Source: Escherichia coli
GTDB taxonomy: Bacteria; Pseudomonadota; Gammaproteobacteria; Enterobacterales; Enterobacteriaceae
DNA length: 64,000 bases
Assembly: GCF_041886205.1 (NCBI RefSeq)
Contig: NZ_CP169029.1
Direction: 5' to 3' (one strand)
The notes below the pieces were generated by a model. The model worked only from the letters and a program-made list of their open reading frames with translations, searched no databases and was not told the origin of the DNA. Below, one piece after another: positions 6,032-19,238 of this stretch. The position numbers were made by a program, and so were the translations under genes. Numbering within the stretch: position 1 is the stretch's first letter; every line of letters begins with the position of its first letter.

Positions 6032-6105
6032 GCGGGCGTAGTTCAATGGTAGAACGAGAGCTTCCCAAGCTCTATACGAGGGTTCGATTCCCTTCGCCCG
6101 CTCCA
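6032..6105 (+). tRNA. glyU: tRNA-Gly (anticodon CCC)
   Basis: 74-nt sequence GCGGGCGTAGTTCAATGGTAGAACGAGAGCTTCCCAAGCTCTATACGAGGGTTCGATTCCCTTCGCCCGCTCCA with cloverleaf pairing and CCC anticodon. Confidence 0.9.
6076..6105 (+). repeat. attL: 30-bp 3' end of glyU, duplicated at the distal island end
   Basis: acgagggttcgattcccttcgcccgctcca is identical to 19239-19268. Confidence 0.75.
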
Positions 6106-6107
6106 GT

Positions 6108-6137
6108 TTACTGATAAATAAGCATATTTTTATTTAT
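6108..6137. repeat. perfect 11-bp inverted repeat immediately 3' of glyU (tRNA terminator or integrase arm site)
   Basis: ctgataaataa-gcatattt-ttatttatcag. Confidence 0.4.
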
Positions 6138-6452
6138 CAGCTAGTTACTTAGCCCCGCTAATGCAGGTACAGTCGTAACTACACATTGCACAATCGCCGC
6201 GCCTGTCGCGTGGTTGGTGTGTGGTAGTCGGGAGCATATCACCGCGCTGGCAGTGGTTTCAACGTTCTTACTGCGACAGCCCAACAACGAACAAAAGCCG
6301 CCTGCCCGGCATAATCCCGAAGACTTTTAGTGAAGCGCATTTTAGCCCGATGCCCCCGTTCTGTCGCCGTCGCGAGACGCCGCAGGGGATAAACAGGTTT
6401 ATGGTGGTCACGGTACTTGCAGACCATATGCAAGCTCTGCCAGCGGTTCGGC

Positions 6453-6564
6453 CTCGCTCCCCTTGGGTACATGGTCATCCTGATAAACTTCACTAACTGA
6501 CATAACGCTGATAAAGTCGCCAGAGGCTCCGCTTGTCTCTTTACCACTAATGGGGCTTTATGGC
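6453..6564. repeat. copy 1 of a ~110-bp imperfect direct repeat (about 80% identical to 7003-7112)
   Basis: Shared blocks ctcgctcc..gggtacatg.tcat..tgataaa.ttcact..ctgacataac.ctgat..gtcgcc..ctccgc..accac.aa.ggggct. Confidence 0.5.
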
Positions 6565-6635
6565 TTCTATTGCCTTGATTTTTAATGTTTATGTTCTAGT
6601 CTGAATGTAACTTTGACACAGCAAGGAGTGAAAAA

Positions 6636-6914
6636 ATGTCTGATAATATGAAACGTTTCGAAGTTAAACGAGAAGGCATAGTTTACGGATATGTAGAAGA
6701 GGGTACATTTGAAACCCGGCGTTGGAATTTCGTCTACCCAATCGTAGATGGAAAGATATCTATGGACATTACGACCGTTAATATCCAAAAACAAGACGGA
6801 AAGACCCTTTTGGAATCACAAATCAAAAATATTGGTTTTGATGTCGATTTTGAAAAAAGAACCCTTACAAGAAATGATGGTACAGTTTTTGATTTAGTTG
6901 AAATCGATAGTTAA
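6636..6914 (+). CDS. hypothetical small protein (92 aa) bracketed by the two direct-repeat copies
   Basis: Strong RBS (aaggagtg) 7 bp upstream of ATG; hairpin downstream (ggcaggagt...actcctgcc at ~6940-6975); no recognisable domain. Confidence 0.5.
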   Translation: MSDNMKRFEVKREGIVYGYVEEGTFETRRWNFVYPIVDGKISMDITTVNIQKQDGKTLLESQIKNIGFDVDFEKRTLTRNDGTVFDLVEIDS

Positions 6915-7002
6915 TCATCACTAAAAGTCTTCACACTTGGGCAGGAGTACCCACCCCTTGGGAACTCCTGCCTGTATTCAAACCCGTTTCAAGTAGCTAC
7001 GT

Positions 7003-7112
7003 TCTCGCTCCTTCGGGTACATGATCATGATAAAATTCACTGTCTGACATAACCCTGATGCTGTCGCCTGACGACTCCGCGTGTTGTCTTACCACCAACG
7101 GGGCTATATGCG
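7003..7112. repeat. copy 2 of the ~110-bp imperfect direct repeat
   Basis: See 6453-6564. Confidence 0.5.
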
Positions 7113-7247
7113 CGCTTTGTTTAAATGGCCCCAATTTAAAGATTCACATGGGAAAGGCCTGCACTTCTGAAAACCCGCTTTCTCAAATTCAATTGAAAAC
7201 GGGTTAATATACTATTACTCAATTTTTTTTCTAAATAATAATCAGTC

Positions 7248-8387
7248 TTATTTGATTAAAGAGTAAATTCCATCTCTATCTAAAAAATCAATGACGTCGT
7301 AGTATGATATTGATAACTCCCACGATCCTAATGCATAGCATTGAATTTCGTACGGGCGGAAATGAAAAGTTAATCCTGAATCATGTATAGTAAAAATATC
7401 TAAACGGCTTTCTAAAATCCCCTTTACCATTTCAGCTAAAGTAGTGTCGTCCGGTTTTTGACCAGTCCTCTCCCAAAATACACGTGGAGCATCTGACATG
7501 AGTTTTTCTTTAATTTTTTTAATAGCATCTAAGTGGGTGCCTCGAATGAAAAGCTCAGATAGAGAAAATTTATATGCGTAGTCATTATCTGTAACCACAA
7601 AATTACTCACAGCAAAGTGGCTGTTTGGGTGTGCAGCGCCAGCGCCGTACCAGTCTACGTTATGTAAGATGCTTATAACATTTTTATTGCAATAAGCAAT
7701 ATAATACATTTCATTGTAATAGCTTGTGTACGTACTTTTATATTCTTCATGCCAGCCAAAATTGTGTGGCCAAGGCGACGTTCTGTTATCAAACACTAAG
7801 CTTGCTACACGGCCTGAAAAATAATTAGATATTATTTCTGCCGACTCTGGAAATAGTTGACTGCTTATTTTCGGGTAAGTTATTTCAAGCTCATGGCTAG
7901 GGATGGTGTTGTGATCTTCTTTATGTGTTAGGCTTATGAATGTAAAGCTGCCGTGTGTAACCCCGCTTGTTACTTCAAGGTTTTGTTGGGTTGCAGCCAG
8001 GTTTAATGATCTTTCTAAAATATCCCAGCCATCAGATCTTTTGTAGTCGATGTATTGGATTTTACTAGATATTAAGGATGGGACTTCGGCGTCGTCAATC
8101 AGCAGTGGGACTACGACGACATCATCTGGTTTATAATATTTTAACTTTTCAATGGCGTCATTTATTTCGCGCCTGATGTATCCATTTTTATTACAGCTAA
8201 CTTTGCTAAGTATTATTATGATAACATTTGCATTGTTAAAATTCTTTTGTATTTCATAATCCCAAATCACACCACCCGGAATATCTTTTATATCCATCCA
8301 CGGTTTATAGCCATTGTTTTTCAACTTTTCATAAATTGACTCGGTTATTTTTTCATCTTCTTTAGCGTGAGCCAAGAATATCTTCAT
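7248..8387 (-). CDS. TIR-domain protein with an unrecognised ~250-aa C-terminal domain (candidate antiphage effector or sensor)
   Basis: N-terminal MKIFLAHAKEDE...W...VIIIILSKVS...NGYIRREINDAIEK matches bacterial TIR motif spacing; AT-rich gene unlike neighbouring core. Confidence 0.7.
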   Translation of the reverse strand: MKIFLAHAKEDEKITESIYEKLKNNGYKPWMDIKDIPGGVIWDYEIQKNFNNANVIIIILSKVSCNKNGYIRREINDAIEKLKYYKPDDVVVVPLLIDDAEVPSLISSKIQYIDYKRSDGWDILERSLNLAATQQNLEVTSGVTHGSFTFISLTHKEDHNTIPSHELEITYPKISSQLFPESAEIISNYFSGRVASLVFDNRTSPWPHNFGWHEEYKSTYTSYYNEMYYIAYCNKNVISILHNVDWYGAGAAHPNSHFAVSNFVVTDNDYAYKFSLSELFIRGTHLDAIKKIKEKLMSDAPRVFWERTGQKPDDTTLAEMVKGILESRLDIFTIHDSGLTFHFRPYEIQCYALGSWELSISYYDVIDFLDRDGIYSLIK

Positions 8388-9080
8388 GTTTAATCCTCTA
8401 TGTGAATCACTCTATAAGGTTGATACTTGTGACATATAAAATGCATTTATTATATTGCAATAAGTAAGGTATCGATAGTCTGTGTTTTCTAAAGCCCAAT
8501 GCGTTGAGAGCAAAAGTTAGTGCTAAGATGAGTTAACTTTTTGACTATCAAAAGCGGTCTTTGAGAAGCAGTGACCCATAAATGTGATATCCGTGCTAGA
8601 TGTCTGAAAATTTCCTGCTTCAGGCCACATTTTACTCTTGGCTGTTAAGCAAACTGGGGAGTTTTATCTCGACTTGAAAAATTGCACGCTTATGGTTGCC
8701 CCTCCCTCAACGATTAAGGCTTCAACTTCCCCCGTGCGCCTCTCCCAGCCGAAGGCTGGGCGGGCTGTATATCGATTTGCCTTTCTCTGTGGCGTTTATG
8801 ACCCTGTTTCGCGTTCTGATCATGAGGCTGTGGGTTAGGGTTAATCTTCTCTTTAAACGCTAAATCACTCTTGACTCTCCGCTGTTAAAGCACTTTGCGT
8901 TGATGCTTGGCGCTTCTCTTGGCTGTCGTTATTGTTTTGGCTTCGGTGTCATCAATCGTTCGATTCTTGCTACCTGTCTGAGTGATTACTATCTGGTATC
9001 ATCAATTTAGGGTTTGACTAAATGCTACCACCAATGCAATGATGCTACCGTTTTGTGATACCAGACGGGTGAGGTGAACC

Positions 9081-9656
9081 ATGAGGACTTTTATCTACTG
9101 CCGCGTTTCAACACGCGAGCAGGATACGCAGAATCAGGTGCTGGCTATTGAGCGTGCCGGGTATAAGGTGCCGGAGAGCAGGGTAATCAGCGAGGACATT
9201 TCCGGCAGCGTTCAGGCTATGCAGCGCCCTAAGTTCCGGGCGATGGTTGAGCACAAGCTGGAAGCGGGAGATCAGCTTGTCGTGCTGAAACTGGACAGGC
9301 TGGGGCGTGACAACATCGATGTGCAGCAGACCATCGACATGCTGTTAGAACGCGGCGTGAAGGTGGTGTCTCTTGACCTGCCAGCGCGTGATCTGACTTC
9401 ATCTGAGGGCAAGCTAATCCGCCAGATGTTTGGAGCCTTTGCTGAGTTCGAGCGAAACCGTATCCGTGAGAGGACGCTGGACGGGCTGGAGAAGGCGAAA
9501 GCCAATGGCGTTAAGCTGGGACGCAAGGAAGCCACCGACACCACTCAAAAGGTGCAGGAGTTGCGGAGTGAGGGACTGTCTCAATCGAAGGTAGCGAAGC
9601 GTCTCGGCGTTAGCGTGAGCACCGTTAAACGCCACTGGAACAAGGGCGAGGGGTGA
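9081..9656 (+). CDS. small serine recombinase (resolvase/invertase family)
   Basis: N-terminal catalytic motif YCRVSTREQ, 191 aa, C-terminal HTH (GLSQSKVAKRLGVSVSTVKRH). Confidence 0.8.
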   Translation: MRTFIYCRVSTREQDTQNQVLAIERAGYKVPESRVISEDISGSVQAMQRPKFRAMVEHKLEAGDQLVVLKLDRLGRDNIDVQQTIDMLLERGVKVVSLDLPARDLTSSEGKLIRQMFGAFAEFERNRIRERTLDGLEKAKANGVKLGRKEATDTTQKVQELRSEGLSQSKVAKRLGVSVSTVKRHWNKGEG

Positions 9657-10737
9657 TGACCTACAAGCGAACGAGGTGCTACGACTGGCCGTTACTGGGC
9701 TGTGGGTGATGGATGACCTACAGTTTTTATATGGATATCAGGGTGTCATGTTATGCGTAATATCGTAATGATATGATTTATAATGTATTTTCGTATTACT
9801 TGCGGCTCTCGATGTGAAGAGGTGGCGGGGCTTTAGCCGTGCCAGACGATGAACATCGAGATCAGATTGTGAATGTGATTCATCACTGAACAATTCGGGG
9901 GATGGGGAGGGAAGGGGAGCAAGAGGTAATTGGTTACGTTCGGCGGCTGGGCTGAATCCTCTCTGTTCCCTGATTAACTTATTTCAGCGTACATGTGTAC
10001 ACTTAACTAATTATCTAGCCTCCCCTACTTACTTATCCTCCCCTCGGGAGGTACGCGCTGCACCTCGTTTACACGTCCCGTCCGCCTGCCGGAGACAGGG
10101 CTTCGCCCCTTCTCCAGACCTCTTCCCCTGCTGCGCTTCTCGCTCGCTTTGCTCTCTGTGATGCTCGGTGCTCATCGCTGCCACGCTTGCCGCACTGGCT
10201 AGGTGGCGGGGGTATACAGTGACACGACATTAACCATAGTTATTTGCACTTTACTGGTAATGGCACTGTATTCTCCATGCCATCTTCACTGTCTGCCGCC
10301 TGCCATTCTTTAGGATTCCATCCCTTAACATTCCGCGCTCGCTCTGCATATCTGGCGACACATTATCAAAATGTATCTTTCATAATTTTATAATCAATAC
10401 AATGAATTACATCTTTAATATTTAAAGGCTACTAATAAGGAAAGCTGGAACATACCTTTCCTGCTTTTAAACCTACGTGAATTGTTTTGTTAACTCCTCT
10501 CGGCCTAGACGCAACAAGGCTTTACCGGGCGTTGCAATCAGTTAAACCGCTAGAAAGCGGCTACTGTGGCAAGACGAACACCACTCGCTTGTGCATCCGT
10601 AGTTACCTACATGAGAGTGACTGCTAAGGATAGGCGGAACATTGTCACCAACACCGACAACGAAACCTCCACTACGGGAATGCAACCAATTCCCTGCGGA
10701 GCCTTTCAAATCCAAACCATTTACTGGAGTCTGTACA

Positions 10738-12582
10738 ATGCCAACAATTTTAGAGCGGCTGCTGGCGCATGCCGACAGGGCTGATGTGCTCAATGTGGGG
10801 TGCGCGGATGCTCAACAATTAATTGCAGATAAGGTTGTTATTCCCCGTTCCAAGTTGTGTCCTGTCAGTGGTAAGCCCGTTAAAGCTGTGTTTAATACTG
10901 AGCAGAACGTATTTTATTTTCACGCTGATGGTTCGGTTATGACTTTCCGCGAATGGAAAATCATAAACGGGATTGGCCGCAAGATACACGCCCGACGCGC
11001 TGATGCTGGGCTTCGTCAGGTTATTCAGCCCGGTGATGCAACTCACTGCCGACGCGCTGAGATTGAGCAGTGGCTGGACAAGAAGCCTGCTCGTTATGTT
11101 GACCCGCTGCCGCCAGACTTCCCCGGCGTTCGTGTCGATGACGCTGCACTTAAACCGCGTGAACACTCCATTCCAGAATCGACAACCGGGCAGAATGCTT
11201 TTCTCAAAGCCTGCCGCGAGTTCCTGATTTGTGATGAGAAGACCATGCACCGTATCAACAGGGGCATGAATAAACTGGAAGCGATGCGCAATACAGATTT
11301 CAAACGCTACGGGGACTCAGCGGAGTTTCGTCAATTGTGGTGTGGAGAGTCGAAACCTGCCGAGGATAAATTTAACAGTACAAATCATCATTGTGACCCG
11401 AACGGCTTGGCTGCATTGCCGTCTGTGCCGTCACTGAATACTGCGCCGTATGAGTTCCGCCCGCTGGCTCGCTGTGACCGAAACGCACGCGTTAGCCTGC
11501 TGCCACCTGATGGGCTGGAGTGGAGGCCGGGGCAGTTGTCTGTTGCTGATGTGATCTTTTCCCGTGGTGGTGATGTGCTGGCCGTTCTTCCCACGGGTTA
11601 TGGCAAAAGTGCTGCCTTCACTTACCCATTGATTTATGAGTCCCGTGCTGGCGTTGGTCTGTCTGTAATCGTTGTTCCTACTAATACCCTTAAACGCCAG
11701 ATTCTCCGACAGTTGCGGGAAGCGGGCGTTCACGCAGTGGCCTTTGGCGATAAGCTACCGAAGCACCGCAACGCGCAACAACTGGCGGGGCTGGCTGCCG
11801 GGGCGTTCCGTGTTGCTGTTGTTTCGCCTGAACATCTGGTTCCGTCGAATCAGGTTTTCGCGGCGCTGATGGCTTACGGTGTTGATCGTTTTATCATCGA
11901 CGAAGCGCACACGGTTAAAGACTGGGATTTTCGGCCTGCTTACGAGGCAATGCAGCACTCGCTACAACATGCCTTTCCTTCGGCTCAGCGCTGCGTGTTT
12001 ACGGCTACGCTACTACGTGAAAATGAGCGCGGTTTAATGGAGTCGCTGGGATGCCGTGGCGATTACGTCACATTCCGTGCTGATGTTGCTCGCGAGAATA
12101 TCCAGTTGATTCCGGTCAGGCAGTGCCGCCAGCGATACCGCGCGGCTGTTGGTCTGGTCGAGGCTCTGCCGAAGGAAGAGAAGACCCTCATTCTCGTCAA
12201 TGACCTTAAGACCTTGCGGGCGTACCTGAAACTCTTAGGCGACCGGGCGCGGCCATATCACTCGAAGACGATGCACCTGAGTAACGAAGAACGCCACGCA
12301 AACGCTGAGTGGTTTGCCACTACGCCGGGCGCAATTCTGGTTGCGACTAAAGCTTTCGGACTGGGGGCTGATGTTCCCGATATCCGTAACGTTATCGTGA
12401 CTTACATTCCTGATGACCTGCCTGATCTCGTTCAGATGATTGGACGAGCCGGGCGCGATGGTCAACCTGCCCGCGCGTTTCTGCTGTGGTCATCTCTGGC
12501 GCTGGATGCTGCGCCTGATGAGCTTGCTTACTTCTACCGCGCTGAAAACTGCAACTGGGATTACATCTCCCGCTTCCTCTGA
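10738..12582 (+). CDS. RecQ-family SF2 DNA helicase fused to a novel ~270-aa N-terminal domain
   Basis: LPTGYGKS (motif I), FIIDEAHTVKDWDFRPAY (DEAH, RecQ-like), IGRAGRDGQPA (motif VI); start chosen at MPTILER with RBS; the ORF-track start at 10642 is less likely. Confidence 0.75.
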   Translation: MPTILERLLAHADRADVLNVGCADAQQLIADKVVIPRSKLCPVSGKPVKAVFNTEQNVFYFHADGSVMTFREWKIINGIGRKIHARRADAGLRQVIQPGDATHCRRAEIEQWLDKKPARYVDPLPPDFPGVRVDDAALKPREHSIPESTTGQNAFLKACREFLICDEKTMHRINRGMNKLEAMRNTDFKRYGDSAEFRQLWCGESKPAEDKFNSTNHHCDPNGLAALPSVPSLNTAPYEFRPLARCDRNARVSLLPPDGLEWRPGQLSVADVIFSRGGDVLAVLPTGYGKSAAFTYPLIYESRAGVGLSVIVVPTNTLKRQILRQLREAGVHAVAFGDKLPKHRNAQQLAGLAAGAFRVAVVSPEHLVPSNQVFAALMAYGVDRFIIDEAHTVKDWDFRPAYEAMQHSLQHAFPSAQRCVFTATLLRENERGLMESLGCRGDYVTFRADVARENIQLIPVRQCRQRYRAAVGLVEALPKEEKTLILVNDLKTLRAYLKLLGDRARPYHSKTMHLSNEERHANAEWFATTPGAILVATKAFGLGADVPDIRNVIVTYIPDDLPDLVQMIGRAGRDGQPARAFLLWSSLALDAAPDELAYFYRAENCNWDYISRFL

Positions 12583-12627
12583 GTTAACTGGCTCGCCTGT
12601 TTAAATTCTTTTCTGGAGAAAATTTGT

Positions 12628-13062
12628 ATGCCTGATGAAACCGCGCTGCATCGCGCGGGGCGTTCTGACGCCCTGATTAATGCACAACTCGCCTTTGCCC
12701 TGAACGGGTATTCATTTGACGGACTGGCGTCACGCCATGTTCACGCTCTTAATCGTGAGGCCATATTGCGCCGGGTAAGCTCGCCACTACAGCGGTATTG
12801 CCTGCTGAATGATTGCGAGCCGTGGGAATGCATCGCGGCGGTGTTGAACAGATTCCGACGCCGGGAGGATGGCTCTCGCGTTTGGCCGACCTACCGCATG
12901 GCTCGCGAGATATTTAACGGAACTGTTCACCCGGATATTAAGACGCGCGATGAGATATTCCAGTCTGTACAACGCCGCCTCTTTTTACCAAAACCAGTAC
13001 ACGCCGAAGTAATTCAGTATCTGCGCGTAATGGGGCTGATAGGAGTTAATCCGCATGACTAA
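12628..13062 (+). CDS. hypothetical protein (144 aa), first of a run of overlapping small ORFs
   Basis: ORF with RBS; stop overlaps next start. Confidence 0.45.
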   Translation: MPDETALHRAGRSDALINAQLAFALNGYSFDGLASRHVHALNREAILRRVSSPLQRYCLLNDCEPWECIAAVLNRFRRREDGSRVWPTYRMAREIFNGTVHPDIKTRDEIFQSVQRRLFLPKPVHAEVIQYLRVMGLIGVNPHD

Positions 13063-13261
13063 AACCGAGTTTGAAAATGAAACGTGGCGGATGAAAGGCT
13101 TGCTCCTTGGAGCGCTAATTCGCCGCCTTGAGGAAGACAAGGTTGGTGAGTCGCGCATGGCCGCAGCGGAGTTATCCAGTGCGGTCAACTTCCTTAAGGC
13201 CAATGCCGTAGAAGCGCCGGACACGTCATTTAACCGTGTATTTGAGGATGACGAGCAATGA
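13055..13261 (+). CDS. hypothetical protein (68 aa)
   Basis: Overlapping start/stop with neighbours. Confidence 0.4.
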   Translation: MTKTEFENETWRMKGLLLGALIRRLEEDKVGESRMAAAELSSAVNFLKANAVEAPDTSFNRVFEDDEQ

Positions 13262-13434
13262 CACCCGCAGAGTTTAGAGCTTGGTTTGCAACCCTGCCGC
13301 CGAACTATCAGAGCGCAGCACGAGCCATGTATGAAAGCGCCCGCAAGACGGGAACACATACCGCTTCCAGCCTGTTACTCATTCGCTCGCTGATTGAAGA
13401 TCAAATCAATTTCGATGGAGATTTTACTCTATGA
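13258..13434 (+). CDS. hypothetical protein (58 aa; below the ORF-track size cut-off)
   Basis: ATG overlaps upstream stop (caATGAcac); translates to MTPAEFRAWFATLPPNYQ...; stop overlaps the next ATG (ctATGAgag). Confidence 0.35.
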   Translation: MTPAEFRAWFATLPPNYQSAARAMYESARKTGTHTASSLLLIRSLIEDQINFDGDFTL

Positions 13435-13994
13435 GAGTTTTAAACCTGACCGATATTCAGCGCATTAATACCCTTGTGAAGCGCGACCTTCTCAATGTGG
13501 AGGAGGTTGTCGCTGCAACCGGATTCGACCCGGTAGATGTGGACGCGGTGCTGAGAGGCGTCTATGTCGCCGATCTTGCCAGCCAGTGGAAGGACGACGC
13601 CGCTATCTCACTGGAGGAATACAACGCTATCCGTAAGCGCTGGAAACCGGGGCGCGGTCACTGGGACACTGCACACGCCATTGCACGCGATTTTCTAATC
13701 CGGCCTGAAACGGTATTAGCTATCGCCCATTCCCGCTTTAGCAATGCCCAAACGCACCCGATGCCGAAAGCTGTTAAAGCGAAGCCTGAGAAGCCGCAGA
13801 CGATGCGCCGCCTGTCTGGCGCTGATCTTGACGAGGCGCACAAGCTGGAGCGCTTTGGCTGGCCTGTTGCTGAGATTGCCGGAAAGCTTGAAATTCCAGT
13901 CGAAGCGGCTGCTCAAGCGCTGCGCCTGATGCGTAATCGCTGGAGCTATCCCGATATTTTAGAAGACGTTAACGCGCGATACGGGGCTAAGTGA
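13431..13994 (+). CDS. hypothetical protein (187 aa)
   Basis: ORF in coupled operon. Confidence 0.45.
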   Translation: MRVLNLTDIQRINTLVKRDLLNVEEVVAATGFDPVDVDAVLRGVYVADLASQWKDDAAISLEEYNAIRKRWKPGRGHWDTAHAIARDFLIRPETVLAIAHSRFSNAQTHPMPKAVKAKPEKPQTMRRLSGADLDEAHKLERFGWPVAEIAGKLEIPVEAAAQALRLMRNRWSYPDILEDVNARYGAK

Positions 13995-14230
13995 TGGCAG
14001 AGCATAACGAACCACTGCATCCCGCAGTTAACCCTGATCTCTATGTGAATCTTGATGAACAACGCGAGGGATACGCGCCGATTGAATCACGGGGCTGGGG
14101 TGTGTTGACGCAGAACCTGACCGGGGAAGGGCGAACCGACTCCAGCCAAACGCTTAACCAGAATCGAAGACAACGCCCGCGCGGCTCTGTTGGTGAACGC
14201 CGTTGGCTTCGCAGGCATGGGTTACTTTAA
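13991..14230 (+). CDS. hypothetical protein (79 aa)
   Basis: ATGA overlap with upstream gene. Confidence 0.35.
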   Translation: MMAEHNEPLHPAVNPDLYVNLDEQREGYAPIESRGWGVLTQNLTGEGRTDSSQTLNQNRRQRPRGSVGERRWLRRHGLL

Positions 14231-14242
14231 CGAGGAATTACC

Positions 14243-14482
14243 ATGAGCAAAACCATTGTACTGTTGCCGCCCCGAAAGAATACCGACTGGGCTGCACAAT
14301 TAAAGCTGATTTCTGAATCGCTTGAGGTGAGTCAGGCAGACCTTGCCCGCGCCTATCAGGTTGACCGTCAGGATATGGGGAAAGCGTATCACGGTGTACG
14401 CAAACTGCCGGAGCGATGTGTGCCTGTTCATATGCTGTTGTTAGCGCAGGTTCACGACTTTAGAGCATTATCAGGAGAATAA
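14243..14482 (+). CDS. hypothetical protein (79 aa), possible helix-turn-helix
   Basis: GAGGAA RBS; segment SQADLARAYQVDRQDMGKAYHG resembles an HTH. Confidence 0.4.
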   Translation: MSKTIVLLPPRKNTDWAAQLKLISESLEVSQADLARAYQVDRQDMGKAYHGVRKLPERCVPVHMLLLAQVHDFRALSGE

Positions 14483-14485
14483 TTT

Positions 14486-15166
14486 ATGTCTGATCAGAAT
14501 GTTAATCCGTACCTTTCCGGTGGTGATGCTGCACCGCAGCAATCGCCATACATGGCCGCACCAGTGGGCGCTGACAATGGCGCATCTCGCTTTAGCGCTG
14601 AGCCTGCTGATGCTGATTTCCTCCGTACCCAGCCCGTTAACGGCAATGATGGCGGCCAATGGAATAATAGCAATATTGCTAATCAGCAAGACCGGAACAC
14701 TGACAGCGCCGAGGCGCAGGTGGGCGATACTATCCCCCTGATGGATGGAACAGCTATTGAGTACACCGCCGAGCTACAAGGTTTAATGGGGCAGTTTCAC
14801 CAGTCCATAGAAAGCCAGCTAGGGCAGGGTACAGTTGACGCTATGTTGCAGTACGCTGGCACGCTCGATGCCGGGACTCAATCAACCCTTGAACGGATGG
14901 TTATGTCTGGCGACCCTGCACAGATGCAGCGGGCGGTTCAGTATCTGCAAGAGCGTATGGCTGGCGGTTCCATTACCGGTTACGTCCCGAACGGCCAGAC
15001 CGCCGCGCAACCTGTCGGAATGTCTCATGCTGAGTTTATTGCAGCGTATGACCAGCTTTCGCAGTGGGCACAGCAATCAGGGTATGGCCCCGGCCATCGT
15101 CAGTACGACGAGCAATACCGCGCTCTGGTTGCGCAGCGCTCCGCTGGCAAACGTGCTGGCCGCTAA
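14486..15166 (+). CDS. hypothetical protein (226 aa) with low-complexity N-terminus
   Basis: AGGAGA RBS; ORF. Confidence 0.45.
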   Translation: MSDQNVNPYLSGGDAAPQQSPYMAAPVGADNGASRFSAEPADADFLRTQPVNGNDGGQWNNSNIANQQDRNTDSAEAQVGDTIPLMDGTAIEYTAELQGLMGQFHQSIESQLGQGTVDAMLQYAGTLDAGTQSTLERMVMSGDPAQMQRAVQYLQERMAGGSITGYVPNGQTAAQPVGMSHAEFIAAYDQLSQWAQQSGYGPGHRQYDEQYRALVAQRSAGKRAGR

Positions 15167-15325
15167 GCAATCGCCCGTCCTGTCTTCTCCGCGTCTTAAC
15201 CTTACGTTTTAGAGCCTGAATCGCGTTGTACATCGCCAGATGTGTATTCGTACACCTGCGCCTGTAAAACGCGAAATTACCTCTCAAACACCACACATAA
15301 ACCCACTTTGCATTGAGATCTGACA

Positions 15326-15673
15326 ATGACCTTACTGACACCTGAAAACGTGGCAGCGGCTAGGGCTGCCCGTAGTGCGAGGATTGAACACTGGAAAGCC
15401 AACGCCAGCCAGCTTAAACAGGACTTTGCTGACGAAGCGCACTGGCGGCGGCTCGCCTCACTCTACGGCGTGCGTATGCCCTCGGCGTATGTTCCCGGCT
15501 CTGAGCTGCGATTGTTGCGCAGGGCGGCCAAACGCGCGGGCATCTCTGGTGCTGACATGCGCGATGCTTTCGGTGGAGGCGTTGCGCACCTGCACGAGCT
15601 TAATCCCCACTGGCCTGCTTTCGCGCTTATCGGCCTGATTCTTGAGATCGCGGCTGAAAAAGCTGCTGCCTGA
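15326..15673 (+). CDS. hypothetical protein (115 aa)
   Basis: ORF. Confidence 0.4.
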   Translation: MTLLTPENVAAARAARSARIEHWKANASQLKQDFADEAHWRRLASLYGVRMPSAYVPGSELRLLRRAAKRAGISGADMRDAFGGGVAHLHELNPHWPAFALIGLILEIAAEKAAA

Positions 15674-15740
15674 CCCGTCACATTCTCTTTTCCCATTTCT
15701 ATAAATCGCGCTGGCTATAGCTGGCGCGGGAGCTATTCCT

Positions 15741-16553
15741 ATGACTGACAATGTTTATACCCCTGATCAATTCCGCCCGCACTGGGGCGGTGTAGGTGCT
15801 GACAACGACATTCACATTGAAGCGTATGACCGGGACGTTCAGACCCGTCTTGAGGCAAAGAGCGTCTTTCTGGCCGAGGGGCTGAGCACATACAAGCCGC
15901 TGAAAGCCAGCAACCATTACCGCATTGATCGCCTGAGTGGTGATCTTGAGGTGAAGGGCAGAACCTCAGGGCAATCGCTGGAGCCTACCGCTGTTAAGTC
16001 GGACAAGCTGATTATCTCTGTGGATACGCTGAGTTATATCCGCATCCCGATTGATTATCAGGATGACTGGACTGCACCCACCTTTCGCGCAGAGCTGAGC
16101 CGCAATATCGGCACTGCGCACGCTAAGTTCTACGACGAAGCGCACACCATCCAGTTAATCAAAGCGACTGACTTTGTACCGCCGCCGACACTGCAACCAA
16201 CGTTTAACCCGCTTACCGGGCAATGCACCCAGCTTACAGAGAGGATAAATAAGATGATAACCACGATTAAGCTGAGGTGGCGGTACATCGAGCCGCCGCC
16301 AATGACTGGCGCACTTGCTGACCTGAAACAATGGGTAATTGATGCCGGAGAGCCTGAGCTTGAAGATGAATTTCGTAAGCTGCTGGGGCTGATGCGTCGC
16401 AATGGTATCAGTGATGAACGTGTTAAGGCGATTGCTGATGAGCTTTATGCTCTGGTATGCCAACGCCAGCGCGAAGAATACGAAGCCTGCAAGCGGGCTG
16501 CCTCTGACAATGGAGACTTTGAATCATGGTTACACGGACAGACCAACTACTAA
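15741..16553 (+). CDS. hypothetical protein (270 aa)
   Basis: ORF; no recognisable domain. Confidence 0.5.
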   Translation: MTDNVYTPDQFRPHWGGVGADNDIHIEAYDRDVQTRLEAKSVFLAEGLSTYKPLKASNHYRIDRLSGDLEVKGRTSGQSLEPTAVKSDKLIISVDTLSYIRIPIDYQDDWTAPTFRAELSRNIGTAHAKFYDEAHTIQLIKATDFVPPPTLQPTFNPLTGQCTQLTERINKMITTIKLRWRYIEPPPMTGALADLKQWVIDAGEPELEDEFRKLLGLMRRNGISDERVKAIADELYALVCQRQREEYEACKRAASDNGDFESWLHGQTNY

Positions 16554-16561
16554 GAAAAGTG

Positions 16562-16954
16562 ATGCGGGGCTATTTGGAACACCTCGGCAATATACCGCTG
16601 GCGGAACGGATTACAAACGCTGCTGCATTCGAAGATGTTTATCGCTTCCTGTTGAATGGTTCCGGGCGGCTGGAGCTGCGCCGTGCTGACGTGGCTGCTG
16701 TCCGTGTCTTCTTGTGGAATTATCAGTACCGTCGCTGTGCGGTGACAGGTAAGCCGCTGCGCCTTGCGTCTGCCGTGCTGGATCACTGCCACCGAACCGG
16801 GCGCGTGCGTGCTGTGGTGCATCGTTCTGCTAATGCTGCCGAGGGCGGCTATCACGTAGGGCGTTTGTGCGGTATGTCCCCAACCAGCATGGGGGCGATG
16901 CTGAGTTGCTATCGCCAGCAATATAAAGGACTCGGCATTATTTATCCGAAATGA
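16562..16954 (+). CDS. possible endonuclease VII / HNH-like protein
   Basis: C..TG...(x)LDHCHRTGRVR segment resembles the recombination endonuclease VII motif (CxxC...DHxHxTGxxRG); weak. Confidence 0.35.
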   Translation: MRGYLEHLGNIPLAERITNAAAFEDVYRFLLNGSGRLELRRADVAAVRVFLWNYQYRRCAVTGKPLRLASAVLDHCHRTGRVRAVVHRSANAAEGGYHVGRLCGMSPTSMGAMLSCYRQQYKGLGIIYPK

Positions 16955-16996
16955 CGGGGCTACTATGCCCCGTATTTTAACTGGCGGGAGGTGTTA

Positions 16997-17914
16997 TCAA
17001 ACAGGAATATTCAAGTAAGCGCAGATTGCATTAGTCAGCAGAGCCGGAGCTACCGCACCCGCAATTTTGAGGCTGCCAGAGTAAGCTTTGCCTATCATAG
17101 CTCCGACCCAGTTACCAATTTCCCCTCCAAGATTATTTGATGATGTGGGGGCTGGGGACTGCTCTATTGCTTGTTTCAACGTCTTAATGTCGCTGTCTTC
17201 AATGCCATATTCTTTTAGTTGACGCTCAAGAGTATTGAAGTCACCAGCTGTTATGGAATTTTGCTGATTAATATCCCCAGTGTTTCCAGCACCAATTGCA
17301 CCAGAGTTGTTAACATTTCCGTTGAAATTATTAATGTTATTTACTGTCATACCTGCCGCCTCTTTCTTTTCTTCGAGAGAAAATAACAACCCTTCACCGA
17401 GTATCCCTTTTCTTTCAAGTAATAAAGCCCAGTCGAGAATCCTTGAGCGAGTATTTGAAAGTATTTTGGTTATCTGTGTGGGGTTAATGCTATATGCCAT
17501 CCGAAAATCGCAGTCGCCCATTTCCTGCAAGAAGTCAGCCAGAAAAGATGGGAGGTCACTATATAGTGTGCTGTCCCGTTTCGCGTACTCAATCAACATT
17601 GATACAGGATTGTTTATGTGAACAGTTGTTAAGGTATCGTAGATATCTTGATGCTTTTCCTGTGTATTACTTAGTTGATATGGAATCCAACCGACATATG
17701 GATTGAACGCTCGAATCGGAACATTTCTGAGAACTCTGTAGTCGGGAAGTAGATCATGTGATGGATAGCCGTTTAATTCATGCTCAAGCCACTCAGATAT
17801 ATCCTTTAGGTCTAGTTTGACTGAGATCATTTTTGCTCGTGCCAATAGCTCCTCAATATCGGTTGAGCTTGAGCTAGCCATTTCTTGTAACTTAAGGACG
17901 GGAGAATTGTTCAT
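16997..17914 (-). CDS. AbiTii-like abortive-infection protein candidate with Gly/Asn-rich linker and hydrophobic C-terminus
   Basis: N-terminal ELLARAKMISVKLDLKDISEWLEHELNGYP resembles the AbiTii N-terminal region; AT-rich; directly downstream of the integrase. Confidence 0.45.
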   Translation of the reverse strand: MNNSPVLKLQEMASSSSTDIEELLARAKMISVKLDLKDISEWLEHELNGYPSHDLLPDYRVLRNVPIRAFNPYVGWIPYQLSNTQEKHQDIYDTLTTVHINNPVSMLIEYAKRDSTLYSDLPSFLADFLQEMGDCDFRMAYSINPTQITKILSNTRSRILDWALLLERKGILGEGLLFSLEEKKEAAGMTVNNINNFNGNVNNSGAIGAGNTGDINQQNSITAGDFNTLERQLKEYGIEDSDIKTLKQAIEQSPAPTSSNNLGGEIGNWVGAMIGKAYSGSLKIAGAVAPALLTNAICAYLNIPV

Positions 17915-17934
17915 TGAAGCCCCTCAAAAGTTTT

Positions 17935-19152
17935 TCAGCATGTTATCGCATCATATTTGACTAACTCAACATGTCTCGATAACTCTTGCATCCCAGCTCC
18001 CTTGCTGTATGTCCTGAATGCTTCAGTTTTGGCCTTTTGTTCGGTGTGCCCTGTGATTGCACCTATCCGCTGTTCTGGTACGCCAGCCCTATCTAAGCAG
18101 GTGATGAAGTGACCGCGCAGTGAATGGAAGCATTGGCGATCTGTAGCCGCTGGCAGCACGCGACGGCGTAGCCGTGTGAATGCCTGAGAATACCACGGGC
18201 CGCGCTTACCATCGGCGCGTTTAATCTTGTTTGATTGGGGCAGTAGGTATTCCCCGTTGTTCTGCGAAAGGTATTTATCAACGATGCTAATTAATAGCGA
18301 GTGTATGGGGACGTGCCTTACGCCCGCTTTAGTTTTAGATTTGCTGACGTAGAAGCACCGTATCCCTTCAACTGTGACGATCTCATCTCGTTTGATGCTG
18401 GCGATTTCGTCGAGACGCATACCGGAATACAAGCCGATTATGATTACGTCGCGCACCTCGCCACCTGCCTCTTTTATTAATGCCTGTAGTTGGTGAGGCT
18501 CAAACGGCTGGTAACTTTCAATGGTGCGGCGGGCTTCCAGATTGTGGCCGTGGAACGGGTTGCTGTCCGGTATCTGATCGTAACGTCTCTTGGCGAACTC
18601 ATAAAGACTGCCCAAGGAGGTTAACCAGTTTTGCACAGTCTGCGGAGCTGCATCACTTTGCTGCTGGGTATCAACGAACTCTGAAACGAGCCGCCGCCCA
18701 ACTTTATCTAAGGTGATATCTGTCTTCTTGATGCTTTGGAGAAATACCTCTACCGCTCTGGCCGACTTGCTCAATGTAGAGAATGTTCGGCGCTCGCTAT
18801 ACACCGCCATGTACTCATCACGGATAGCGGACAGCTTGGGAATCATTGTTGAAACATGTGTAGTTTCGGGTGATTTATTGCTGGCCTGTTTTAATAAAAT
18901 TTGCAGGGAGCTAAGCGTGTTCTGGATTCTAATATCTTCGCGCTCAGGATTTAGTAATGTCTTGATGTTATTGAACTCAATCAGCATGTGGTTGCGAAAA
19001 TGCCGAGCCTTTACGATGTCCCTAGTTCCCGTGGATTTGCGCCAAGCCCGTTTATTGCCAAACAGATGGCGCATGTATTTTGGGACAAAGATTTGAAATA
19101 TCCAGACGCCGTTATGGCTTTGAAAAAGATACTGATTGTGCTTGATAGGCAT
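17935..19152 (-). CDS. tyrosine-type site-specific integrase
   Basis: 405 aa; C-terminal catalytic residues (R...HSLRGHF...Y); adjacent to attR. Confidence 0.85.
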   Translation of the reverse strand: MPIKHNQYLFQSHNGVWIFQIFVPKYMRHLFGNKRAWRKSTGTRDIVKARHFRNHMLIEFNNIKTLLNPEREDIRIQNTLSSLQILLKQASNKSPETTHVSTMIPKLSAIRDEYMAVYSERRTFSTLSKSARAVEVFLQSIKKTDITLDKVGRRLVSEFVDTQQQSDAAPQTVQNWLTSLGSLYEFAKRRYDQIPDSNPFHGHNLEARRTIESYQPFEPHQLQALIKEAGGEVRDVIIIGLYSGMRLDEIASIKRDEIVTVEGIRCFYVSKSKTKAGVRHVPIHSLLISIVDKYLSQNNGEYLLPQSNKIKRADGKRGPWYSQAFTRLRRRVLPAATDRQCFHSLRGHFITCLDRAGVPEQRIGAITGHTEQKAKTEAFRTYSKGAGMQELSRHVELVKYDAITC

Positions 19153-19238
19153 AGCTTTTTGTCCTATAAAAGCACGCTATCAGGTACAGCCATTTGTACA
19201 ATGTTGGGATGGGTAAGCAAGTTTCCGACTTGTTTTAA

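Follow-up and report, generated by a model that had tools for sequence, protein, structure and literature searches.

The window analysed here, a stretch of 64,000 nucleotides (nt) of Escherichia coli DNA (contig NZ_CP169029.1, assembly GCF_041886205.1), contains an integrative element of 13,163 bp. Near one end of the element lies a gene for a protein of 379 amino acids (aa), in which an N-terminal TIR domain is fused to a C-terminal DUF4163/DUF3298 module resembling RsiV. By profile comparison, the protein belongs to both the TIR_2 and the DUF4163/DUF3298 families. We consider it reasonably likely, if far from assured, that it is a single-gene abortive-infection anti-phage protein, in which sensing would lead to assembly of the TIR domains and then to NAD+ depletion. 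A defence phenotype is inferred from genomic context, from the architecture of the family and from effector swapping, which all point that way; NADase activity, oligomerisation-driven activation and a phage trigger are likewise inferred. In the proposed mechanism, the cytoplasmic RsiV-like module would bind a ligand of phage origin, most probably a protein, and binding would make the TIR domains self-associate. The assembled TIR domains would hydrolyse NAD+ through Glu74, and the loss of NAD+ would arrest or kill the infected cell ahead of phage release. As cargo of the element, the gene would guard the host, and the element with it, from competing phages. The features of the gene are as follows.

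7248–8387, minus strand: TIR-DUF4163/DUF3298 gene, 379 aa plus stop (open reading frame (ORF) list, ATG start, Pfam, AlphaFold2 model, homologues)
8394–8398, minus strand: Shine-Dalgarno sequence GAGGA, 6 nt 5′ of the ATG (read from the sequence)
7983–8387, minus strand: N-terminal TIR domain, residues 1–135, predicted NADase effector
8166–8168, minus strand: codon for Glu74, candidate catalytic glutamate (invariance in homologues, CrtSPARTA alignment)
7251–7970, minus strand: DUF4163(PdaC)/DUF3298 RsiV-like module, residues 140–379, predicted sensor
7623–7652, minus strand: W-Y-G-A-G-A-A-H-P-N motif, residues 246–255, invariant or nearly so in the family

The N-terminal domain was matched by Pfam TIR_2 (PF13676) over residues 3–122 (E = 4.4e-20, model positions 1–115 of 122) and by Pfam TIR over residues 5–80 (E = 4e-5), and has the flavodoxin-like TIR fold. 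The original prediction, made by reading the DNA without database searches, had named a TIR domain here; the profile match bears this out, and the motifs that it quoted are found in the translation. By sequence, the domain is nearest to its counterparts in SPARTA TIR-APAZ proteins (PADLOC E = 3e-16; PDB profile E = 4e-12). Glu74 was invariant across 64 homologues of 23–86% identity, and aligned to Glu77 of CrtSPARTA TIR-APAZ, in which the E77A mutant is without NADase activity (PMC9097488). Because the invariant Glu74 aligns with this catalytic residue and the SPARTA domains are the closest relatives, the TIR domain of the 379-aa protein looks catalytic and is a predicted NADase.

The C-terminal ~245 aa had been described in the same prediction as matching no family, and on this point it was mistaken. 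Pfam DUF3298 matched residues 279–362 (E = 2.8e-7), Pfam PdaC/DUF4163 matched residues 166–256 with borderline significance (E = 1.6e-3), and precomputed annotation of DUF3298 is present for almost all homologues. An AlphaFold2 model of the full protein, built from a 64-sequence alignment, gave a mean predicted local distance difference test (pLDDT) score of 88.6, with blocks of 92–98 over most of the C-terminal half. The modelled module has the two-subdomain fold of DUF4163/DUF3298 (RsiV / PdaC-N / MPT64), and a Foldseek comparison with the PDB matched 3cyg, 3s5t, 5jen (RsiV bound to lysozyme) and 4e72, with E values of 5e-12 to 6e-9. The W-Y-G-A-G-A-A-H-P-N loop could be identified as the signature loop of the fold, since it aligned to FTGGAHG of 3cyg and AGGTHP of MPT64.

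RsiV and most DUF3298 proteins bear a signal peptide, a lipoprotein signal or a membrane anchor. In the 379-aa protein, the TIR beta-A strand comes first, and neither a signal peptide nor a transmembrane segment was found anywhere in the chain (maximum KD19 1.43). With the TIR domain at the very N-terminus and no hydrophobic segment, the protein is judged to be cytoplasmic, without the extracytoplasmic location typical of RsiV. Unlike RsiV (5jen), 3cyg, 3s5t, 4e72 and MPT64, to which its identity is 11–18%, the module here is cytoplasmic and fused to an enzyme. To our knowledge, the only member of the fold to have been characterised is RsiV, the anti-sigma-V factor, which acts as a receptor with lysozyme as its protein ligand. 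The DUF4163/DUF3298 family is only partly characterised, rather than well characterised with a non-defence role. On binding, RsiV occupies the lysozyme active-site cleft, inhibits the enzyme 1:1 and turns binding into a signal (PMC5014341). A sequence-profile alignment to RsiV, meant for the lysozyme-contact loops, did not retrieve 5jen even at E ≤ 10.

The architecture, of ~380 aa, recurs in a family of proteins that extends across Proteobacteria. A total of 126 homologues was found among 5.8 billion proteins, nearly all of 376–404 aa with the TIR_2+DUF3298 arrangement and mostly from environmental Proteobacteria and metagenomes. Their sources include Enterobacteriaceae, Yersinia, Pantoea, Pseudomonas, Burkholderia, Stenotrophomonas, Collimonas, Azonexus and Methyloversatilis, along with many metagenomes. 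About 20 residues were invariant down to ~25% identity; shortened homologues also occur (e.g. P0019, P0021 and P0027). A tblastn search with the TIR protein gave zero matches in 50,697 phage genomes. In plasmids, only distant matches were obtained (22–45% identity), comprising two near-full-length genes annotated 'TIR domain-containing protein' on Agrobacterium and Rhizobium megaplasmids and three matches confined to the N-terminus.

A profile of the C-terminal module, searched against 1.84 billion cluster representatives, identified 8625 proteins with E ≤ 1e-3, of which 122 reached E ≤ 1e-30. TIR was present in 98 of the best 150 representatives, with 83 of the 98 being 360–430 aa in length, and most of the non-TIR representatives among these 150 were gene fragments or secreted DUF3298 proteins. 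In four representatives (P0241, P0294, P0295 and P0297), an HNH nuclease occupied the N-terminus instead of TIR, and in one (P0205) DUF4062 did so. The HNH version matched the sensor profile with an hhalign probability of 99.7 over 215 columns. Sensor-effector immune proteins typically consist of a shared non-catalytic module with interchangeable toxic enzymes. On a more specific proposal, the sensor would be an intracellular counterpart of RsiV, detecting a muramidase of the phage (an endolysin or a tail lysozyme), or some other phage protein, and switching on TIR, HNH or DUF4062. We think this version unlikely, and a phage muramidase as the trigger is speculation from the RsiV analogy. If true, it would reveal a new phage-sensor family across Proteobacteria.

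Among known systems, SPARTA offers the closest comparison. Like SPARTA TIR-APAZ, the protein has an N-terminal TIR domain followed by a ~250-aa non-catalytic module, with the catalytic glutamates aligned (E74 with E77). The output of SPARTA is NAD(P)+ depletion upon oligomerisation (PMC9097488). Unlike in SPARTA, the C-terminal module is DUF4163/DUF3298 rather than APAZ, and there is no Argonaute gene; sensing would therefore not be based on guide RNA and target DNA. Neither APAZ nor a short Argonaute was detected, as PADLOC and PDB matches ended at residue ~120–139 and no Argonaute ORF was found nearby. TIR-SAVED, TIR-STING/CAP12, retron-TIR, Cat1 and TIR-NLR/Avs-like proteins follow the same logic, in which a TIR effector is joined to a sensing module and ligand-driven oligomerisation brings about abortive infection; the present protein would be activated likewise. 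Its sensor differs from those of the TIR-SAVED, STING, retron and NLR proteins, being no cyclic-nucleotide receptor, reverse transcriptase or STAND NTPase, and in contrast to the cyclic-nucleotide TIR systems, no signal-generating enzyme is encoded nearby.

SAVED_TIR matched residues 2–68 (E = 8e-6) and CAP12 gave E = 0.81, in the TIR part only, and no CD-NTase was found in the element. Matches to ThsB were weak (PADLOC, E = 0.007–0.008; Pfam ThsB_TIR, E = 0.65), and NCBIfam ThcB4 scored 14 bits, the cutoff being 220. A gene for ThsA (SIR2/SLOG or Macro/TM) was neither adjacent in the window nor found in 10 other contexts. Because APAZ or Argonaute, SAVED or STING with a cyclase, ThsA, and reverse transcriptase were not found, the protein was not assigned to SPARTA, CBASS, Thoeris or retron-TIR. 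Membership in these systems and in Pycsar was also rejected on the PADLOC, NCBIfam and PHROGs matches, which covered the TIR part only and fell below family cut-offs. By comparison with these systems, the protein probably works like TIR-APAZ or TIR-SAVED, as a fused sensor with a TIR NADase output. No full-length model for a TIR-DUF3298 protein exists in PADLOC-DB 2.0.0 or NCBIfam 20.0 (June 2026), and no paper on a pairing of TIR with DUF3298, DUF4163 or RsiV was found in the full-text literature, although a description may still stand in a supplementary table or in a very recent defence screen.

Judged locus by locus, members of the family are recurrently sited by known defence genes or in prophages and satellites. 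Some TIR versions are carried by integrative elements, with two reverse-transcriptase genes, AAA_13 or YobI-ATPase in the vicinity, and one by a satellite that also has genes for D5 primase, capsid and AlpA. The HNH version P0241 (L025, 8001–8999) lies in a dense defence island with restriction-modification methylases, DpnII-MboI, GmrSD, NERD and SIR2_2+DUF87. In B. cepacia, a TIR version occurs as a prophage moron near nSTAND3/Mrr, between the late-gene region and terminase, and in a P. fulva prophage another lies beside NACHT-SNaCT13. No neighbour was conserved across all contexts examined.

The prophage copies bear on a different proposal, in which the gene serves phage or satellite lysis control, or lysozyme neutralisation, with the RsiV-like module inhibiting a phage muramidase and TIR being accessory. 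The 1:1 inhibition of lysozyme by RsiV through the active site would be a precedent, and the copies are at or near the lysis region, with DUF2514 neighbours in P. fulva and the late-gene/terminase site in B. cepacia. However, this prophage position is a generic moron site, and the invariant catalytic glutamate and the HNH swaps argue for a toxic output. Sequence-level likeness to the lysozyme-contact loops of RsiV could also not be shown, and 5jen was not retrieved by profile. A role in lysis is accordingly held to be quite unlikely.

In eight loci from other enterobacterial assemblies (L003–L010), the protein is 98% identical and is encoded in a minimal island without the element core, in the order integrase remnant, AbiTii, TIR gene, tRNA-Gly. 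AbiTii is here directly beside the TIR gene, and an AbiTii-domain gene is carried on the same element in the window. Together with the weak ThsB matches (E = 0.007–0.65), this would fit a protein that is one part of a multi-gene system, either as a ThsB-like TIR that makes a nucleotide signal for an effector elsewhere or in joint action with AbiTii. However, AbiTii was not adjacent in E. coli N18-04097, in P377 or in any more distant context, and in the window it lies 8.6 kb from the TIR gene. As it is missing from beside the identical gene in N18-04097 and P377, AbiTii was rejected as an obligate partner. No ThsA, SLOG or Macro effector was found nearby, and HNH in place of TIR is easier to reconcile with a terminal effector than with signal generation. 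We give dependence on further genes only a small chance.

Bacterial TIR proteins of the TcpC or BtpA kind exist in pathogens, and the gene might likewise encode a Tcp-type virulence factor that enters eukaryotic cells by delivery and subverts Toll-like receptor signalling there, or an inter-bacterial toxin. A Stenotrophomonas copy beside a type IV secretion system effector/immunity pair (X-Tfe/Imm11) would suit such a role, as would the ETT2 island that adjoins the element in the window. The environmental and metagenomic origin of most homologues speaks against it, as do the lack of a secretion signal or delivery domain in the protein and of a conserved adjacent immunity gene. ETT2, moreover, is outside the att-bounded element. 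Virulence or toxin function is considered very unlikely.

Several observations weigh against single-gene abortive infection as the function. In our assessment, all of the functional case for the TIR-DUF3298 family rests on association. The arrangement of the TIR domain relative to the C-terminal domain is uncertain in the AlphaFold2 model, with a predicted template-modelling score (pTM) of 0.64, and TIR domains can serve as scaffolds or signal generators instead of NAD+ depleters. The Stenotrophomonas locus suggests inter-bacterial conflict, and the Methyloversatilis locus was uninformative. Lysozyme binding is not universal within the RsiV/DUF3298/MPT64 fold: RsiV binds lysozyme, but MPT64, with the same fold as the sensor module, does not (PMC5014341). 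Finally, the TIR gene is rare in E. coli, occurring in 2 of 5426 complete genomes. This rarity, with the shortened versions P0019, P0021 and P0027, could indicate a decaying, non-functional passenger gene. The ORF is intact, however, with a good ribosome-binding site, the protein is 98–100% identical across several species and sites, and the conservation of about 20 residues down to ~25% identity is likewise at odds with decay; a passenger is highly improbable. All four alternatives (multi-gene system, lysis control, virulence factor or toxin, and passenger) are less likely than single-gene abortive infection.

TIR NADases are a recurring immune output in bacteria, plants and animals, and for most of them the question is what they sense. 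In the protein described here, a SPARTA-like TIR is paired with a receptor fold of the RsiV type, and the same predicted sensor is reused with HNH and DUF4062. If the family proves to be a defence system, the catalogue would gain a compact, single-gene member whose sensor is of a new class, and escaper phages and toxicity on co-expression would offer a simple route to its trigger. A second functional context would also open up for the DUF3298 superfamily, which is large and mostly uncharacterised.

The TIR gene lies within an element bounded by att repeats, whose main features in the window are listed below.

6032–6105, plus strand: tRNA-Gly(CCC), of which the 3′ 33 nt (6073–6105) form attL (ARAGORN, Rfam 71.6 bits, repeat search)
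19236–19268, plus strand: attR, a 33-nt copy of the tRNA-Gly 3′ end, 32/33 identical (repeat search, zero chance matches expected)
6106–19268, no strand: integrative phage-satellite-like element of 13,163 bp (att repeats, gene content, shared core)
9081–9656, plus strand: serine recombinase/resolvase, divergent from the TIR gene and first gene of the conserved core (phrog_125 E = 5e-55; kept in related elements)
16997–17914, minus strand: AbiTii-domain gene in the second, integrase-proximal cargo slot (PADLOC AbiTii E = 6e-41)
17935–19152, minus strand: tyrosine integrase adjoining attR (phrog_1 integrase E = 5e-35)
6636–6914, plus strand: orphan ORF of 92 aa, convergent with the TIR gene (only 3 homologous clusters in 5.8 billion proteins)
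6460–6562, plus strand: direct repeat copy 1, a conserved attL-proximal segment of the element family
7010–7110, plus strand: direct repeat copy 2, directly 3′ of the TIR gene

From attL, the order is the 92-aa ORF (plus strand), the TIR gene (minus strand), resolvase, helicase, several small genes, a major-head-like gene, an endonuclease VII/HNH gene, AbiTii, integrase and attR. Satellite features are present in the integrase, the 33-nt att repeat and the helicase. From gene content alone, we would describe the element as phage satellite-like. Its organisation resembles the defence hotspots of P4-like satellites and PICIs, in which a variable cargo slot separates the att site from the conserved core of an element integrated at a tRNA gene. 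As in such hotspots, slot content varies among ~90%-identical elements with integrase, helicase and capsid-like genes. Unlike typed P4, PICI and cfPICI, the present element is known by its gene content only.

The TIR gene is low-GC cargo in the variable slot between attL and resolvase. Its GC content is 36.3% (34.5% at third codon positions), lower than in the element core (53.6%) and in the chromosomal flank (50.8%), in agreement with the original prediction of an AT-rich gene. The same prediction placed the gene at the edge of an island; it is indeed near the attL end, ~1.1 kb inside, though the vague edge gives way to an element defined as 6106–19268. It was also right that the TIR gene in the window has no ThsA-like, CBASS or STING gene next to it and that a small ORF flanked by direct repeats is close by. 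The neighbours are the convergent 92-aa ORF and the divergent resolvase, neither of which had a PADLOC match.

The element core was found at ~90% identity in elements of 638 of 5426 complete E. coli genomes. Related elements are integrated at glyU, thrW and a tRNA-Leu, with a variable cargo slot at each end. The two cargo slots of this widespread family could be mined for further defence genes. The contents of the attL-resolvase slot in related elements were as follows.

N18-04097 and P377: the same TIR cassette
NCTC11023: DUF3800 and two hypothetical genes
E2348/69: two hypothetical genes
Enterobacter: an unrelated 289-aa gene

The two copies of the ~103-nt imperfect direct repeat are roughly 80% identical and flank the 92-aa ORF. 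In L003–L010, L028 and L029, the attL-proximal segment is single-copy, and in L003–L010 its sole copy lies where copy 2 does with respect to the TIR gene. The direct repeat is the conserved attL-proximal segment in duplicate, left behind by cargo accretion, and is not a feature of the TIR gene. This suggests that cargo cassettes are added through recombination at the attL-proximal segment.

The 92-aa ORF had no domain match in PHROGs, PADLOC or elsewhere. In Enterobacter, it occurs at the same tRNA-Gly site beside the unrelated 289-aa gene, without the TIR gene. The ORF was rejected as a partner, being an orphan that is missing from L003–L010, where the TIR protein is 98% identical, and that occurs without the TIR gene in Enterobacter.

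Promoter and terminator scans around the TIR gene were uninformative in this AT-rich DNA, and in the Rfam search of the locus the tRNA alone was above threshold. A ctRNA_pGA1 match at 8672–8765 (minus strand), between the TIR gene and resolvase, scored 23.8 bits against a gathering threshold of 45 (E = 0.11) and is probably due to chance.

Other genes of the element showed some peculiarities. The helicase (10642–12582, plus strand, 646 aa) matched the PADLOC 'DpdF' model PDLC02858 over its full length (E = 1e-269). As further dpd genes were not present, the model may in fact describe a satellite-type helicase such as this one. The major-head-like ORF (15741–16553, plus strand, 270 aa) was covered by the PHROG capsid profile over residues 1–159 only and runs into the beginning of the endonuclease VII/HNH ORF (16526–16954). 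In related elements the capsid is annotated as 331–333 aa, and the gene may be shortened or rearranged in the window. Beyond attR, and thus outside the att-bounded element, the AT-rich region at ~19300–38000 (31–40% GC) carries SctQ, SctT, SctJ and YgeH and corresponds to the ETT2 type III secretion island by glyU.

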